From a virus (taxonomy: Duplodnaviria; Caudoviricetes), in the IMG/VR virus record IMGVR_UViG_3300025858_000010, positions 96,001 to 160,000 of that record: a stretch of 64,000 bases of DNA; one strand, 5' to 3'. Shown in pieces: positions 1,472 through 61,355 of the stretch. Position numbers and translations under genes: made by a program. How positions within the stretch are numbered: position 1 is the first letter of the stretch; each line of letters opens with the position of its first letter. The notes below the pieces were generated by a model. The model worked only from the letters and a program-made list of their open reading frames with translations. It was not told where the DNA came from and did no database searches.

Positions 1472-1991
1472 AAGAATACAAAATAATAAATATTTAGATA
1501 TGAACAAGAGAGAAGAGGAATTGATTACCACATTATATAATTATTATGTTGATGGTACAGTAACAGAACTTAAAGTTGGTGATTATGTTAAGTATACAAG
1601 AACTGTTTCTAAACATTCTGGTAAAATAGGCACATTTGAAGGAACTAACAATGAAGGTAAGTATAAAATTAGATTCGATGATATTAAAATATTGTTAATC
1701 TGTAATCCACAACACGTGGAATCGATTAAAAAAGATGAAAAAAGTATTGATCGTTTAATAAAAATATTAAAACAAATGGTTCTTGATGGGGATTTAAGTC
1801 AAGTTGCAATAAATGAATTTTTAAATGGATTAAACAGAGAAAAGAAATTGAAAGAAATAGATCCATACGATGAAGAAAATTGGGAAGAAGAAGAAAAAGG
1901 AATGTTCCTACCCAAAAGAATATCCAAAACAAAAAGTAGAAGAACCATAGACCCTTTTGATCGTAGTGGAGGTTTTCACAGAGGATGTTAA
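1434..1991 (+). CDS. KOW/SH3-like protein with DPYDEENW tag (true start probably near 1468-1500)
   Basis: LKVGDYVKY...GKIGTFEG...YKIRFDD; KEIDPYDEENWEEEE at 1860-1883. Confidence 0.65.
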   Translation: MFQLIISNYIINERIQNNKYLDMNKREEELITTLYNYYVDGTVTELKVGDYVKYTRTVSKHSGKIGTFEGTNNEGKYKIRFDDIKILLICNPQHVESIKKDEKSIDRLIKILKQMVLDGDLSQVAINEFLNGLNREKKLKEIDPYDEENWEEEEKGMFLPKRISKTKSRRTIDPFDRSGGFHRGC

Positions 1992-2867
1992 ATGATATTA
2001 TTTAATAAAAAAATAGAATTAAAAACTCATTATTGTCGATATTTCGACGATGAATTAGAGGAAGTTGATGAACCATATGTTAATGTTCAAATAAAAATAA
2101 ATGGATGTAATGCTAATTGTTCATTTTGTAATAGTAAAAATGGACCATCTTTAGATGAAGATAAATATTATTCAAAATTAGAAAAAATATCAGAAAAAGT
2201 AAGAATTAGAAAATTAAATTTAAGTGGTGGCGAACCAACTCTTGATTTTGAAAAGTTAAAAAGAATATTATTAAAAACAAGAGAAATTCTTCCTAACGTT
2301 TATATGGCAATTAATACAAATGGATATAATTTTGAAAAATTATTCGAGAACGATTTATATAAAATAGTTGATAATATACAATTAAGCAGACATCATTACG
2401 TTGACGAAATCAACAACGAAATATTGGGTTTTAATTCAATATCAAAAGATATAATTCATAATATAAGCAAAGAATTAAGTAATAAAAGATTTTTAAATTT
2501 GTCTTGCAATCTTATTAATGGATATATAGATGATGAAAAAGAAATTTTCAATTTTTTAGAAGAATCTAGTAAAATTGATATTAGATGGGTTGGTTTTGTT
2601 ACTCTCATATCTTTAAATGAATATTGTGAAAATAATATAATTAAATTTAATGACATGAATTTATTAAATGATAGATTCGTTATCACCAATAGATTTACTT
2701 TCAAAAATTTATGTAAATGTTATGGATATGTATATATACCAACAGACGGTGGTGATCCAATAAGAGTATATAATAAACAAACTGAAAAATCTGATGACAT
2801 TAAAAACATATTGGTTTTCGATGGAGAAAATTTCAATATTGGATTTACAAATAATGTTTTAATTTAA
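1992..2867 (+). CDS. Radical SAM protein
   Basis: CxxxCxxC (CNANCSFC), SGGEPTL, INTNG, LSRHHY. Confidence 0.9.
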   Translation: MILFNKKIELKTHYCRYFDDELEEVDEPYVNVQIKINGCNANCSFCNSKNGPSLDEDKYYSKLEKISEKVRIRKLNLSGGEPTLDFEKLKRILLKTREILPNVYMAINTNGYNFEKLFENDLYKIVDNIQLSRHHYVDEINNEILGFNSISKDIIHNISKELSNKRFLNLSCNLINGYIDDEKEIFNFLEESSKIDIRWVGFVTLISLNEYCENNIIKFNDMNLLNDRFVITNRFTFKNLCKCYGYVYIPTDGGDPIRVYNKQTEKSDDIKNILVFDGENFNIGFTNNVLI

Positions 2868-3034
2868 TCTATTGGTCTAGTAAAAATTTCTAACATGTTA
2901 GACGGTGATGGATCATAATTATATGGTTTCTTTATAATTGTTTTACACCATATAAATCATTCCAAATATCTTTATTCCCTTCTTTCAGATAATATCTATA
3001 TCTATAATCTTTCCACGTTACGATTTTTTTCACA

Positions 3035-3607
3035 TCATTTTATATTGTTTTCATATTTTAATTTTAAAATTAGATAATCCGTGACTATATCAAAAATTTT
3101 TAAATTATCTATATCGCCAAAACTAACTTTAACGACTCTATTTTCTTCTGTCACTTTAATGCTAGTTTGTTTATAATCATTATAATTTATTGTTAATAGA
3201 CATATATGGTATTGCCCAACGTTATTAACGTCTTTAAATAAAACTTTATCGACTTCTATAGGAAATAATTGATTTAATACTACACCGGTTTTTTCATATA
3301 GAATGCGTCTAACATTTTGTGTTTCTGTTTGATCGTCGTTAAATGAATCTTTTATGCTTGTAAGATAATAATCTATTGTATTATATTCAGATTTATCCTT
3401 ATATTTAAATTTAAATGCTGGACATTTTTCATGTTTTAGAAGTATGTATCCTTCATCTTTAAAATATGGTAATATGACTACTTCAGCGTCACTAATAACA
3501 ACGTCTTTATCATCGAATTTAATAATTGATAATTCGTCATTTTTAAATATTTCTTCATTATCTTCGCGTTTTGGTTCATTTTTCTTTATTTTTGTAAATT
3601 TTTCCAT
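3035..3607 (-). CDS. Nudix-fold protein with degenerate Nudix box
   Basis: VVILPY...ILLKHEKCPAF followed by DSFNDDQTETQNVRRILYEKTG where Gx5Ex7REUxEExG is expected. Confidence 0.5.
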   Translation of the reverse strand: MEKFTKIKKNEPKREDNEEIFKNDELSIIKFDDKDVVISDAEVVILPYFKDEGYILLKHEKCPAFKFKYKDKSEYNTIDYYLTSIKDSFNDDQTETQNVRRILYEKTGVVLNQLFPIEVDKVLFKDVNNVGQYHICLLTINYNDYKQTSIKVTEENRVVKVSFGDIDNLKIFDIVTDYLILKLKYENNIK

Positions 3608-3622
3608 AATTTATATTTATTT

Positions 3623-3779
3623 TTAATCATCGTCCCAATTTTCTTCTCCGTATGGATCAATATCTTTCATCTTATCTCTAATTTCTAAATTTCTTAAAGG
3701 TTTCTATCTTAGATAATCCTTCGTATGGATCTATTTTCTTTTTTCTAAATATATTAAATTCTTCGAATAATTTAATCAT
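3623..3779 (-). pseudogene. Frameshifted mini-gene: leader plus DPYGEENW tag
   Basis: MIKLFEEFNIFRKKKIDPYEGLSKIE in one frame, then RNLEIRDKMKDIDPYGEENWDDD* in another; the shift is near 3700. Confidence 0.55.
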
Positions 3780-3885
3780 ATTAATTTTTTTTAATTATAT
3801 ATAAAAAAACATTTTTCAATTTTAATATATAATTTTGTAAATTAAAAAAAATTATTTAACTTCGTAAAAAATAAATATAAATATT

Positions 3886-4401
3886 ATGAAATTTAAGGAT
3901 TGGTTCAAAAAGAATGTGGAAGAAAAACAATTACCCAAGATTGAAACTTTAAAAAATAAAAAAATTAACGAATCATTCGTCGAGTGTGGTACTTGTGAAG
4001 GTTCTGGCATAGATCCAAATAATGAAGACAGAAATTGTCCTGATTGTAATGGGGATGGTGGATATGATGACGGAAACGAAGGATGGTATAATAATGATGA
4101 TGAACAATATCAACGTCAACAAAGAAAAGAAAAGAAACCAAAGGTTGGAAAAAATTTTAAAGTTGGAGATGTTCTAGTTTTAACGGATGATAAGAAATCA
4201 TCTAAGATGCCACAAGATGCCTATGATTTCTTAATGACTTATAAAACATTCACTGTTAAATCAATAAACGATAAAGGTAAAATAAATATTGGATGTAGAA
4301 TATCTAAAAACGAAAACGGTATAGGAGTTGAGAAAATCTATATGTTTTCAACAGATAGATTTGATTTATTGAACCCGGCAACATTATTGGAAGAAAAATA
4401 A
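3886..4401 (+). CDS. Protein with DnaJ-type zinc finger and C-terminal SH3/KOW-like domain
   Basis: CGTCEGSG and CPDCNGDG; FKVGDVLVL; leader MKFKDWF and a KINES site. Confidence 0.65.
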   Translation: MKFKDWFKKNVEEKQLPKIETLKNKKINESFVECGTCEGSGIDPNNEDRNCPDCNGDGGYDDGNEGWYNNDDEQYQRQQRKEKKPKVGKNFKVGDVLVLTDDKKSSKMPQDAYDFLMTYKTFTVKSINDKGKINIGCRISKNENGIGVEKIYMFSTDRFDLLNPATLLEEK

Positions 4402-60086: not shown

Positions 60087-60143
60087 ACTTCTATATTATT
60101 TTTTGATACAAATTAAAAAGCGAAAAAATAATAAATTAGTAAT

Positions 60144-60374
60144 ATGAAATACTTAATATACATAATAAAAGAAAAGTTTAATATAATATTTGATATTAAG
60201 AAAACTTATAAATGTATCGCGTACATAAATGAAAAGGAAAAAGTAGATAAATTAGTAGATACTTTTGAAGTTAAAGAAGCTTCTGAAAGAAGAGCATTTA
60301 AAACCGCCTATGACATATTAAAATTAAAATATAATAATATGGGATTTGATATAAGAATATCTAAAGAAGAATAA
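60144..60374 (+). CDS. Hypothetical protein
   Basis: 76-aa ORF in the plus-strand run. Confidence 0.55.
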   Translation: MKYLIYIIKEKFNIIFDIKKTYKCIAYINEKEKVDKLVDTFEVKEASERRAFKTAYDILKLKYNNMGFDIRISKEE

Positions 60375-60376
60375 TT

Positions 60377-60811
60377 ATGGAAAAAGAAGAAAAAAGGATA
60401 AATAGACTTAAAAATTGGTTTATAAAAATATTTGATGGTATTGATGTATTAACACAAGATCAACAACTAGCTTTTGATATATTTAAAATATGTTTATATG
60501 ATGATAATAATATTAGATATTTAAATTCCAGTAACTCATATAAAAAATATATAGTTAATAAAAAATTCGTTTTAGATAAAGATGTTAGTACTTTTATTAT
60601 TTTAGAAAGTGGTAAACTCACAATAATTAATCATACATATAAATACGATATTGAAATACCACAAAACACATCGCTTAAAATGAATAAAATGTTCGATCGG
60701 AAAGTAGAAGAGGATAGATCGATAATGGAAAAAGAAATACTTGGGAATATAACTTCGAGTCTTAATATAGTATTAACGAATTTTAAAAACAATCTAGAAT
60801 CAAAATCGTGA
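60377..60811 (+). CDS. Hypothetical protein
   Basis: 144-aa ORF, tightly packed. Confidence 0.6.
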   Translation: MEKEEKRINRLKNWFIKIFDGIDVLTQDQQLAFDIFKICLYDDNNIRYLNSSNSYKKYIVNKKFVLDKDVSTFIILESGKLTIINHTYKYDIEIPQNTSLKMNKMFDRKVEEDRSIMEKEILGNITSSLNIVLTNFKNNLESKS

Positions 60812-61146
60812 AAAAATTCATTATAATTATTTATTTTTTATTTTTATCTTTTTTAAGTTATTCAGCACATCCATTTGGTACCACAAAAGTATTTGATTGT
60901 AAGGATTTAAATAATGGTTGTGAAATGAAAATATATGCAAAAGCTGAATTGGGAACTATATATTTTTATATGGAAGATTATGTGGACGGATATGAATTAT
61001 TTTTATACGATTCGCTAGGGAGAAAATTATTAGAACAAAAAATAGAAAACGAATCTAGTTTTAATAAAGAAAATTTAACAAATGGCCTTTTCGTTATAAA
61101 AATAACTGATGGTAAAAAAGTATCCACGAAAAGAATTTTAATGTAA
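60808..61146 (+). CDS. Signal peptide plus T9SS type-A C-terminal sorting domain-like protein
   Basis: MKKFIIIIYFLFLSFLSYSA signal; LYDSLGRKLL...NLTNGLFVIKIT.GKKVSTKRILM matches the Por secretion tail pattern. Confidence 0.7.
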   Translation: MKKFIIIIYFLFLSFLSYSAHPFGTTKVFDCKDLNNGCEMKIYAKAELGTIYFYMEDYVDGYELFLYDSLGRKLLEQKIENESSFNKENLTNGLFVIKITDGKKVSTKRILM

Positions 61147-61154
61147 ATTCCATT

Positions 61155-61355
61155 CTACTCCCATTCTACATCTTTTTTATAAGAATTCACGAGTTTTTTA
61201 ACTAATTCCTCGGATTGTTCTCTGGTCATATTACCAACAGGAATAATGAATTTTAAAATACGTGTCGGTGTAATTGGAATGGATTCAGGAATGGGATCAT
61301 CATTCCAATCTTCTTCACCGTATGGATCAATTTTTAATTTTTCTTCGTTTGTCAT
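61155..61355 (-). CDS. 66-aa protein: DPYGEEDW tag plus copy of the portal clip segment
   Basis: KFIIPVGNMTREQSEELVKKLVNSYKKDVEWE versus portal KFVIPVGGLTRQQAEQQVYELMSEYHDDVQWD: 16/32 identical, ungapped. Confidence 0.8.
   Translation of the reverse strand: MTNEEKLKIDPYGEEDWNDDPIPESIPITPTRILKFIIPVGNMTREQSEELVKKLVNSYKKDVEWE

Follow-up and report, generated by a model that had tools for sequence, protein, structure and literature searches.

Which protein, if any, reads an acidic eight-residue peptide that a giant freshwater phage carries on many unrelated proteins, and what is it read for? We addressed this question in a window of 64,000 nt (positions 96,001-160,000 of IMGVR_UViG_3300025858_000010), the whole stretch of DNA analysed, to which all coordinates refer, and in the whole 243-kb genome.

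An acidic tag repeated across the genome

A six-frame search of the window with the pattern DPY[GDN]EE.W returned 14 copies of the tag, the same intact copies that the original prediction had claimed, and the decayed and partial copies reported at 9742 and 3723 were also found:

1860-1883, plus strand: DPYDEENW, residues 143-150 of the 185-aa ORF 1434-1991
3635-3658, minus strand: DPYGEENW, in a 26-codon open frame without usable start
3678-3779, minus strand: 33-codon ORF with leader MIKLFEEF... and partial tag IDPYEG, upstream of the 3635 copy in a different frame
7142-7165, minus strand: DPYDEEIW, residues 12-19 of the 113-aa ORF 6857-7198, immediately behind the leader
9742-9867, minus strand: decayed tag DIDPCDEEE-stop, at the end of a 41-codon ORF
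9864-9887, minus strand: DPYGEEEW, one residue before the stop of the 99-aa ORF 9858-10157
10170-10193, minus strand: DPYGEENW, two residues before the stop of the 200-aa ORF 10161-10763
10738-10761, minus strand: DPYGEEEW, two residues before the stop of ORF 10729-11445
14228-14251, plus strand: DPYGEEDW, residues 58-65 of the LRR protein 14057-14935
22371-22394, plus strand: first of two tags in protein 22065-23078, between repeated modules
22734-22757, plus strand: second tag of protein 22065-23078, closing the second module
51151-51174, minus strand: residues 17-24 of LRR paralogue 50470-51222, behind the leader MIKNFKIFE
51905-51928, minus strand: residues 17-24 of LRR paralogue 51224-51976
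52461-52484, minus strand: DPYNEEDW, residues 17-24 of LRR paralogue 51978-52532
54201-54224, minus strand: residues 18-25 of LRR paralogue 53520-54275
61305-61328, minus strand: residues 10-17 of the 66-aa ORF 61155-61355

The claim that every copy lies in the sense frame of an ORF held for 13 of the 14, which sit in ordinary ORFs; the exception is the copy at 3635. Because its open frame lies directly downstream of the leader-bearing ORF 3678-3779, in another frame, the two are probably the 3' and upstream parts of one frameshifted gene. Tags are placed N-terminally (the four LRR paralogues, 6857 and 61155), C-terminally (9858, 10161 and 10729) or between modules (22065), as had been described except for the fifth LRR gene, 14057, where the tag starts at residue 58. 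The product of ORF 9858-10157 runs from a Tudor/SH3-like barrel through a helix to the tag. Protein 22065-23078 consists of two modules, each ending in ...KRIFT.E-DPYGEEDW, and has an acidic tail at its end (...EYEDEDDE), and the last 32 residues encoded by ORF 61155-61355 are similar to portal residues 280-311.

The whole genome contains 48 copies, 45 of them inside 37 called genes, and a six-frame search found none that was antisense or out of frame, which does not fit a DNA element. Two hundred control patterns permuted from the same letters matched 0.04 times on average and at most twice, and the reversed DNA pattern had no match in six related records. These counts confirm that the tag is real and exclude a chance origin. 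About 10% of the proteome is tagged in this phage and in its relatives, LR756501.1 included.

Selection acts on the peptide

The 48 copies are encoded by 36 distinct 24-mers, so that the synonymous variation claimed earlier is real, and the codon bias within the tag (CCT-TAC-GGT) is that of the genome-wide codon-pair context. The constraint is on the peptide, not on the DNA. Among 14 orthologue pairs compared with LR756501.1, identity at the tag positions was 59% over all pairs, with 7-8 of 8 residues shared wherever the tag was retained, as against 28% for the flanks and 31% for the remainder of the protein; the tag had been gained, lost or moved in 5 pairs. Such retention in diverged proteins, together with this turnover, is the behaviour of a short linear docking motif. 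Tandem double tags exist as well. The commonest of 315 distinct tag contexts (71 cases) has two residues from the Trp to the stop, and tags commonly end in ...W-[ED]-[DEN]-stop. Often a charged, typically Lys/Glu-rich helix precedes the tag, and in the AlphaFold model of the SH3-like carrier the barrel and the helix are confident, whereas the last ten residues, with the tag, reach a pLDDT of about 60.

A peptide without any partner, acting as a passive structural element (helix cap or linker) or left as a footprint of repeated DNA, is already disfavoured and hardly credible to us. The charged helix in front of many tags would suit it, and in Lactobacillaceae proteins, which we take from their flanking sequence to be enolase, the same eight residues form a strand-to-helix connection, so the tag sequence can be purely structural. 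However, the eight residues are near-invariant over hundreds of unrelated contexts with unconserved flanks, the tag is of low confidence in the monomer model, and the frame bias and the synonymous variation, with a codon bias explained by codon context, point the other way.

Carriers and their N-terminal leader

After masking of the tag, the 37 carriers fell into about 24 unrelated BLAST groups, and Pfam returned LRR, DUF6934 or no match, which bears out the view of a portable peptide, under peptide-level selection, on carriers that are unrelated proteins. The reported absence of the tag from structural and metabolic genes applied to this genome but not to the 735-kb relative LR756501.1, in which the tag is found, among other carriers, on a CCA-adding-type nucleotidyltransferase, a GNAT, a deaminase and a methyltransferase, and also on fragments similar to sheath, to prohead protease and to capsid protein. 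The enzyme carriers in this relative could equally act in the cytoplasm.

Many proteins of the genome bear a leader of the T4-like capsid-targeting type, ending in [LI]xE and resembling the repeats of the following gene:

31379-33805, minus strand: prohead protease domain (first 224 residues), continued by an acidic, scaffold-like part in which YSEYIAE..DK.I recurs about 13 times, these repeats being similar to the N-terminal leaders

That nearly all carriers have this leader proved an overstatement. The strict form ([FYW]xx[FYLW][ILVF]xE) was present in only 7 of 37 carriers and a loose form in 26 of 37 versus 42% of other genes (odds ratio about 3); for the co-occurrence of leader and tag the odds ratio is 3-4. 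Sites of the form [LIV]xE are weakly enriched behind internal tags (0.37-0.43 versus 0.25), and the candidate promoter TAATATATA showed no enrichment among carriers.

A tag of one megaphage subclade

LR756501.1, the record-holder relative, has 105 tag copies and five related contigs have 17-40 each; LR756502.1, LR756500.1 and Lak-B5 have none. Its distribution is thus limited to a single subclade of megaphages. In bacterial genomes the motif was found only in the Lactobacillaceae proteins and in a few phage-like contigs binned into MAGs. LR756502.1, the sister of LR756501.1, has a different tag, R-[DNE]-x-K-[IL]-x-x-[IL], on 104 of its 967 genes; this peptide is basic and amphipathic, almost exclusively C-terminal and mostly on small fast-evolving proteins, and the leader was rare among the carriers inspected at the N-terminus. 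About 105 genes are present in LR756501.1 and absent from LR756502.1.

A degron or timer, through which a protease adaptor of phage or host would remove a whole class of proteins at a fixed point during infection, might produce this picture, given that the tag is mostly C-terminal, exposed and on small fast-evolving proteins and that in LR756502.1 a comparable share of small ORFans ends in another tag. Tags are nevertheless also internal, in tandem, and N-terminal on LRR proteins among head genes, no protease adaptor was identified, and the sole supported partner, a predicted one, is not a protease; we consider a degron very improbable.

A candidate reader in the head-gene module

Modelling points to four tandem paralogues as the best-supported candidate for the tag reader. 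They lie at 43140-47233, in the head-gene module between the portal and the LRR carrier cluster and on the same strand as these:

43140-44099, minus strand: candidate reader paralogue 1, 319 aa, with leader, helical domain and GNAT-like domain with the loop YYTPSTGRLGSNAGN
44116-45171, minus strand: candidate reader paralogue 2, 332 aa from ATG, with the TGR...G loop and no leader
45189-46220, minus strand: candidate reader paralogue 3, 343 aa, the paralogue folded and co-folded
46238-47233, minus strand: candidate reader paralogue 4, 331 aa, with leader and TGR...G loop

Three of the four have a T4-like capsid-targeting propeptide ending at a predicted [LI]-x-E protease site. No member of the family carries the tag, and the reader had no sequence match in Pfam, PHROG, NCBIfam or the PDB. 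The structure model of paralogue 3 (pLDDT 91.9) matched GNAT acetyltransferases over residues ~155-326 in all of the best 50 rows of a VIA structure search, at Z scores of 4.6-6.1, thus below the caution line of 8; Naa80 entries were among the matches (Z ~5) and an Atlas search agreed. With such a domain the reader could act on the tag as an enzyme instead of serving as an adaptor.

Paralogue 3, picked partly by charge, was co-folded in three runs with the last 45 residues of the tagged protein 10161-10763, alongside three controls. The score was 0.72 (runs 0.72, 0.72 and 0.71) versus 0.00 for the best control, passing a mark that 58 of 80 solved complexes attain, as do 2 of 110 mismatched pairs (approximate counts; own alignments were used). 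The runs agreed in 100% of contacts, with a partner pLDDT of at least 67. The partner residues in predicted contact, 35-36, 38-43 and 45 (V-D-.-Y-G-E-E-N-W-.-V), are exactly the tag, and those of paralogue 3 are 233-234, 236, 286-287, 289, 291, 310, 313, 315, 317, 319, 321-322 and 324. A tag-reader contact is supported by this modelling, which yields the first candidate for a reader. These paralogues, the sole model-supported partner, were outside the list of partners proposed originally, namely scaffold, portal, ATP-grasp ligase, SH3-like domain and host hub; of these the analysis covered the SH3-like domain, indirectly, through the carrier model with its low-confidence tag.

The contacted loop, [ST]-G-R...G, is kept in 31 of 31 tag-clade head-module orthologues of the four paralogue groups and is absent from the family's other paralogues in this genome and LR756501.1, and from 7 of 7 homologues in the tag-less LR756502.1; because the candidate was picked partly by charge, this argument is not fully independent of the choice. 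Head-module members have net charges of +1 to +11, most of them +3 to +9, and the difference from the LR756502.1 homologues lies mostly in acidic C-terminal tails there, not in the groove.

Our preferred reading, with a probability of about one half, takes DPYGEExW for a portable docking motif of the short linear type, borne on flexible termini or linkers and read by the four head-module paralogues for capsid loading. The tag lies most often two residues from the C-terminus, otherwise just behind an N-terminal propeptide or between modules. The readers, mildly basic and each with a helical and a GNAT-like domain, would hold the invariant Tyr-Gly-Glu-Glu-x-Trp in a groove of the last GNAT-like strands, around the conserved Thr-Gly-Arg...Gly loop, with Arg315, Arg233 and Lys234 predicted opposite the two glutamates. 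Through their propeptide, presumably cleaved at the [LI]-x-E site, they would enter the prohead core and carry in tagged LRR proteins, small fast-evolving proteins and enzymes, which might then be delivered along with the DNA. The position of the readers, the leaders and their co-occurrence with the tag favour loading; the small number of carriers with a strict leader, the weak enrichment of [LIV]xE sites, the lack of promoter enrichment and the enzyme carriers of LR756501.1 weigh against it.

The short-linear-motif behaviour would fit equally well if the reader were another phage protein (capsid interior, scaffold, portal or another compartment or machine) or a host hub, the co-fold result being one of the false passes seen in 2 of 110 mismatched pairs. 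One candidate was co-folded, in a genome with about 290 other proteins, the same clade pattern is shared by about 105 genes, and the tag of LR756502.1 has no obvious link to leaders, which suggests that a tag of this kind can do without a tie to head assembly. Against this, it is precisely the invariant residues that are predicted to be in contact, and the controls scored 0.00; the contacted loop tracks tag presence over clades and paralogues, and bacterial genomes yielded no host-encoded copies that would suggest mimicry of a host ligand. A different reader seems to us unlikely, yet a serious competitor.

The coupling of tag and reader would serve either capsid loading or modification. In the latter case the tag would be the recognition site of a modifying enzyme, either the GNAT-like paralogues or a clade-specific RimK-like glutamate ligase and M14 carboxypeptidase that write and erase glutamates on the tag or C-terminal end. 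Solved N-terminal acetyltransferases such as Naa80 bind acceptor peptides at the last-strand region, which is where the predicted site lies, and Ser-Cys, Asp-Arg-x-Tyr and Asp residues are invariant throughout the reader family. A RimK-like ATP-grasp gene (20663-22063; Pfam RimK 1e-23, PDB matches to S6 glutamate ligases) is the immediate upstream neighbour of the acidic-tailed two-tag carrier, and the acidic ends ...W-[ED]-[DEN]-stop would suit such a ligase. LR756501.1 has the RimK-like gene, the M14 carboxypeptidase and a C39-like peptidase, and LR756502.1 lacks all three; this is weak evidence, because about 105 genes share the pattern. By eye, however, the usual acetyl-CoA loop (Q/R-x-x-G-x-G/A) is missing from the reader after the strand MDRIY, and the tag core offers no Lys or free amine for acylation by a GNAT. 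Moreover, tags occur at N-terminal, internal and C-terminal positions, so that a free acidic C-terminus cannot be a general requirement. We regard modification as improbable.

Comparison with known systems

None of the papers containing the string DPYGEE deals with phages, in keeping with the earlier statement that no such phage system was known. The closest parallel to docking for capsid loading is the capsid-targeting sequence of T4 (IPI-III, Alt), a short conserved peptide that addresses diverse internal proteins to the prohead scaffolding core (PMC3012670). A similar leader ending in [LI]xE is found on many proteins here, three of the four candidate readers included. The T4 sequence, however, is N-terminal and removed by the prohead protease, whereas DPYGEExW is mostly C-terminal or internal, acidic and aromatic, and itself lacks a protease site; separate from the leader, it forms a second signal that would survive maturation. 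Its predicted reader is GNAT-like and not a scaffold, and loading is here our inference.

Encapsulin cargo-loading peptides are short, usually C-terminal sequences on flexible linkers of unrelated cargo, which dock inside a shell of HK97-type fold; they are hydrophobic, rich in Gly, Ser and Leu, and bind the shell protein itself. The tag is likewise short, often C-terminal and on unrelated proteins, but its sequence is unrelated, it marks about 10% of the proteome, and its predicted reader is a separate adaptor-like protein. Naa80 and the acidic actin N-terminus offer a likeness in that the C-terminal half of the reader matches GNAT folds and an acidic peptide is predicted on the last strands. 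In contrast with Naa80, the reader has no sequence-level GNAT family membership, a cofactor loop is not evident, and the bound peptide is not an N-terminus.

The C-terminal tag of LR756502.1 is comparable in that it marks roughly a tenth of the genes, for the most part those of small, fast-evolving proteins, and the peptide differs between the sister lineages. The two sequences are unrelated, basic and amphipathic there and acidic and aromatic here, and a candidate reader is proposed for DPYGEExW only.

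A shared acidic peptide in unrelated proteins

The record comprises 243,112 bp at 26% G+C (window, bases 96001-160000). All 14 window copies of DPY[GDN]EE.W listed in the original prediction were found at the coordinates claimed for them, 13 of them inside ordinary ORFs and in sense frame. The 14th, at 3635, is inside a 26-codon open frame situated immediately downstream of, and in another frame than, a 33-codon ORF (3678-3779) bearing a leader, i.e. an N-terminal stretch that resembles capsid targeting sequences and ends in [LI]xE. This ORF itself holds the partial copy IDPYEG, as had been noted, and the two are most simply regarded as one frameshifted gene. 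The copy described as decayed is the terminus of a 41-codon ORF (9742-9867).

The whole-genome search that had been proposed was performed with the pattern DP[YFW].[ED][ED].[WFY] and yielded 48 copies, 45 of which are inside 37 of the 293 crudely called genes. As a control for chance, 200 patterns composed of identical letters in shuffled order matched 0.04 times on average and 2 times at most. No other 6-mer of the proteome is as widely shared as DPYGEE. No antisense or out-of-frame copy was found in the genome. Synonymous codon variation, also noted, was confirmed, since 36 distinct 24-mers encode the 48 copies. Tag codons favour CCT-TAC-GGT, the genome norm being CCA, TAT and GGA. Genome-wide, Pro before Tyr, Tyr before Gly and Gly before Glu show these same preferences, so that the bias reflects codon context and no conserved DNA cassette. 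Frame and strand counts, the diversity of the 24-mers and this codon-pair control together led us to reject a repeated DNA element.

Among 315 distinct contexts taken from the genome and related contigs, six of the eight core positions are invariant or nearly so, and the consensus reads [KR]-x-[KIV]-[FHIY]-[SKNT]-[DE]-[IVL]-DPYGEE-[DNE]-W-[EDN]-[DEN]. The commonest layout is Trp, two residues and a stop (71 cases).

Proteins carrying the tag

With the tag masked, the 37 carriers fall into about 24 BLAST groups. The tag is located at most about ten residues from the C-terminus in 15 carriers, within the first 25 residues in 12 and internally in the others. One group corresponds to 11 leucine-rich repeat (LRR) paralogues genome-wide (Pfam LRR_4, E about 1e-50), in which the tag mostly sits behind the leader MIKNFKIFE. 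Those of the window are:

50470-54275 and 14057-14935, four on the strand of the head-gene module: five LRR paralogues, just downstream of two large unannotated genes

More LRR-like proteins, free of the tag, begin with MKYIKKYQLFE. A further group is built from a module made of a Tudor/SH3-like barrel, a Lys/Glu-rich helix and the tag, six of which are present in a single 673-aa protein. The barrel of a 99-aa carrier has weak fold matches to Tudor, chromo and PWWP barrels (E about 0.05). As a receptor for the tag in cis the barrel gained no support, the tag having an AlphaFold pLDDT of about 60 behind a confident domain in this carrier; it may still act in trans. Most remaining carriers gave no matches. 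One 66-aa carrier (61155-61355, minus strand) combines the tag with a 32-residue copy of the portal protein, 47% identical to residues 280-311 of the LR756501.1 portal.

The tag in related phages

LR756501.1 is the nearest GenBank record as judged by the portal protein (89% identity). It is the 735-kb genome of Al-Shayeb et al. 2020, assigned to the Mahaphage clade, with Bacteroidetes as predicted host (PMC7162821). It contains 105 tag copies (reversed control, 0) distributed over 87 of 1015 called genes. Five related IMG/VR contigs bear 17-40 copies apiece, and the tag is also present on many lake and other metagenome contigs. No copy was found in LR756502.1, a sister phage of 642 kb with a portal 50% identical, or in LR756500.1 and Lak-B5. 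When 185,579 bacterial and archaeal genomes were searched for the exact peptide, it was recovered only from Lactobacillaceae proteins (SIE-DPYGEEDW) and from a few low-G+C MAG-binned contigs. The former, which from their flanking sequence we take to be enolase, are a coincidence; the latter are probably phage.

The genome and LR756501.1 show block synteny, with a median protein identity of 61%. Although rated 100% complete, the record is devoid of counterparts for about 275 kb of LR756501.1; either it is a relative of much smaller size or its assembly is incomplete or rearranged.

The tag had been described as absent from structural and metabolic genes. This fails to generalise, since carriers in LR756501.1 include enzymes (a poly(A)/CCA-type nucleotidyltransferase with an HD domain, a GNAT, a deaminase and a methyltransferase) as well as fragments resembling tail sheath, prohead protease and major capsid protein. 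One LR756501.1 carrier holds a stretch resembling residues 52-132 of the major head protein.

Evolution of the tag was studied on 14 reciprocal-best orthologue pairs with LR756501.1. Retained tags are identical at 7-8 of 8 positions, with flanks at 28% identity and remainders at 31%. In 5 of the 14 pairs the tag is absent, has moved or is kept as one of two. The LR756501.1 orthologue of an untagged 481-aa protein has gained a 700-residue N-terminal extension with four tags, and double tags in tandem exist. Carriers are mostly clade-specific: one of the 37 has an LR756502.1 orthologue, which is untagged, and a second matches only the LR756502.1 portal gene. The tag thus combines a conserved core in a flexible region, unconserved flanks, unrelated carriers and ready gain, loss, movement and duplication, as expected of short linear motifs. 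With high confidence we regard it as a short linear motif that is portable, serves docking and belongs to one megaphage subclade; a degron or a passive element are unlikely alternative readings.

A different tag in the sister phage

LR756502.1 (loci L179-L211) carries a tag of its own. The pattern R-[DNE]-x-K-[IL]-x-x-[IL], in longer form R-[DNE]-x-K-[IL]-x-x-[IL]-(L/G)(I)-stop, is found no more than 10 residues from the C-terminus in 104 of its 967 called genes. It is C-terminal in 3 genes of the present genome and in 1 of LR756501.1. The tagged proteins have a median length of 116 aa, are mostly small ORFans and are clustered near the record ends. Just 2 of the 104 have LR756501.1 homologues. 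Terminal tags on about a tenth of the proteome are thus common to the two lineages, the tag itself being lineage-specific. An unrelated tag at equal frequency suggests a general, evolvable addressing principle in megaphages, beyond one genome.

Choice of a candidate reader

To look for the protein that recognizes the tag, phyletic profiling was performed. About 105 genes are present in LR756501.1 and here and absent from LR756502.1, so that the profile does not discriminate; the most conserved ones encode Nudix, glycosyltransferases, an M14 peptidase, a truncated class II aaRS-like protein, IF3 and unannotated proteins. Three further tag-bearing contigs, as distant as LR756501.1 (about 60% identity), added no resolution. 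Net charge of the orthologues here and in LR756502.1 was used as the next filter and pointed to a family of the head module:

43140-47233, minus strand: four tandem GNAT-like paralogues, the candidate reader
45189-46220: the paralogue used for co-folding

These four paralogues have a net charge of +4 to +8, against -14 to -29 for their LR756502.1 relatives. This difference is real but suggestive at most, since acidic tails in LR756502.1 account for the greater part of it. No other leader-bearing family is as large: it has 6 members in the present genome and 14 in LR756501.1, all of them free of the tag. Some paralogues are fused to barrels that elsewhere carry it.

Co-folding was carried out between the paralogue 45189-46220 (34-relative alignment) and the last 45 residues of the carrier 10161-10763 (14 tag ends). 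The score was about 0.72 (0.71-0.72 over three runs), versus 0.00 for the best of three controls. Of solved complexes, 58 of 80 attain the mark applied to such scores, and of mismatched pairs 2 of 110 do so, counts that are approximate with own alignments. The runs showed 100% contact agreement with a partner pLDDT of at least 67. In the models, the contacting segment is exactly Val-Asp-.-Tyr-Gly-Glu-Glu-Asn-Trp and faces residues 233-234, 236, 286-291 and 310-324 of the reader, the lowest-error contacts linking the two glutamates of the tag to Arg315, Arg233, Lys234 and the 321-322 loop. The co-fold supports a predicted binding of the tag to this protein.

The contacted loop, Y-[YF]-[TN]-P-x-[TS]-G-R-[LIA]-x-[ST]-x-x-G, is conserved in 31 of 31 head-module orthologues of the tag clade, covering the four paralogue groups. 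It is missing from the other paralogues of tag-clade genomes and from all seven LR756502.1 homologues, in which position 315 is Tyr, Thr, Gln, Glu or Met. The predicted pocket loop follows the presence of the tag across clades, which provides a partly independent check on the co-fold. No family member was detected at distant portal loci or at other megaphage loci. We give about even odds to these four GNAT-like paralogues being the reader, the alternative being another reader altogether, for which the profile of about 105 genes leaves many candidates.

Fold of the candidate reader

The AlphaFold model of the reader has a pLDDT of 91.9, with a disordered leader. By profile, no sequence match to the family was obtained in Pfam, PHROGs, NCBIfam or PDB, and Foldseek against PDB gave no match below E 0.001 for the model. 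An exhaustive structural search (VIA) returned GNAT acetyltransferases in all 50 of the top 50 matches (Z 4.6-6.1, residues about 155-326), and an Atlas search likewise returned GNAT proteins. The tag is predicted to bind at the last strands of the GNAT-like domain, on the side where solved N-terminal acetyltransferases accommodate their acceptor peptides. The reader could accordingly modify the tagged proteins instead of loading them; an acetyl-CoA pyrophosphate loop, Q/R-x-x-G-x-G/A, is not evident by eye after its MDRIY strand.

Neighbouring genes and a candidate promoter

A second alternative is an enzyme-substrate relation, which may involve a clade-specific RimK-like ligase and an M14 carboxypeptidase. 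The ligase adjoins a carrier with an acidic tail, in a gene cluster that is present in the tag-bearing clade and absent from LR756502.1. This cluster may be a glutamylation or ligation module; ATP-grasp glutamate ligases of the RimK type extend acidic C-termini of their substrates.

19016-23078, plus strand: cluster of a 303-aa truncated class II aaRS-like protein (EpmA/AsnA-like size), a 175-aa protein, a leader-bearing RimK-like ATP-grasp protein and a two-tag protein ending in ...EYEDEDDE
20663-22063: the RimK-like ligase
Whole record (G000) 227777-228631, minus strand (locus L010:10780-11631): M14-type zinc carboxypeptidase, 79% identical to its LR756501.1 orthologue
Whole record 230769-231335, minus strand (L010:13772-14335): C39-like cysteine peptidase

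Both peptidase genes flank tag carriers, and neither is found in LR756502.1. Further genes observed are:

17220-18989, 25561-27534, 27595-29388, 33932-35563 and 35560-37200: five large paralogous HNH/homing-endonuclease genes (phrog_3339/559), interspersed among the genes for DNA polymerase, major head protein, protease and portal; one of the five includes a fused Mom-like domain
29543-31300: major head protein
31379-33805, minus strand: fusion of a prohead protease (phrog_207, residues 1-224) and an acidic scaffold-like part
40479-40853: weak sigma-like (gp55-like?) 124-aa gene
7199-8800 (minus strand), 59580-60086 (plus strand) and whole record 69376-69897: translation and nucleotide genes, namely Glu/Gln-tRNA synthetase, IF3 homologue and Nudix

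The Nudix, of the ADP-ribose pyrophosphatase type, is 82% identical to its LR756501.1 orthologue. The element TAATATATA (extended, TTAATATATAA) was found upstream of 59 genes genome-wide, with a peak about 30 nt before the ATG; examples are 30 nt upstream of 31379-33805, 37304-39121 and 46238-47233. For TTAATATATA, 48 of 63 genome copies are upstream of genes. TAATATATA is likely to be a phage promoter and resembles the T4 late TATAAATA. Carriers showed no link with this candidate promoter (8 of 37, versus 51 of 256 other genes).

Leader signal and possible role of the tag

Many proteins of the genome start with [FY]-x-x-[FY]-[ILV]-x-E. The original prediction that nearly all carriers have a leader was too broad, a strict leader being present in 7 of 37, but co-occurrence of leader and tag does exceed chance (odds ratio 3-4; p = 3e-5 in LR756501.1). 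Protease sites after internal tags were weakly enriched. The scaffold-like part of the protease fusion contains about 13 tandem repeats YSEYIAE..DK.I (about 32366-32908) closely resembling leaders, and each repeat includes a T4-like I-A-E protease site.

The coupling may serve piggyback loading of the prohead, as suggested by the leaders, by the position of the genes and by cargo such as LRR proteins and enzymes, or it may instead serve modification of the tagged proteins. In the case of loading, tagged proteins would ride into the prohead on the readers and then enter the host with the DNA. The boldest reading, to which we assign a probability of roughly three in ten, is that megaphages run lineage-specific "postcode" systems. 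Four packaged GNAT-like adaptor paralogues would read DPYGEExW, and the proteins thereby loaded or marked as cargo entering the host with the DNA would make up about a tenth of the proteome, among them LRR proteins, enzymes that modify nucleic acids and scores of small proteins that evolve fast. Sister lineages would have replaced both tag and reader pocket.

The small proteins of huge phages number in the hundreds and mostly lack a known function; a shared tag groups roughly one in ten of these as one functional class, even while their individual roles stay obscure. If this class means "delivered with the DNA", the tag would offer, for the largest phage genomes known, a catalogue of candidate effectors of host takeover and anti-defence. 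With a defined tag-reader pair, the question would become testable at the bench with two recombinant parts, and the pair could serve as a small orthogonal protein-docking pair. Literature containing the string DPYGEE consists of unrelated eukaryotic papers, and the titles and abstracts of papers mentioning Mahaphage are not about such a tag; no description of it was found. New here are the candidate reader with its clade-matched pocket and the other tag that the sister phage uses.

By sequence, the N-terminal leader of this genome resembles the capsid targeting sequence of T4 together with its protease site (PMC3012670). The T4 signal is N-terminal, comprises about 10 residues, is removed at [LI]-x-E and suffices for loading a foreign protein into proheads. 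Encapsulin cargo-loading peptides, for comparison, attach to the inner face of an HK97-fold shell protein. In contrast to the T4 signal, the tag occupies the C-terminus of 15 carriers, is internal in others and contains no [LI]xE site.
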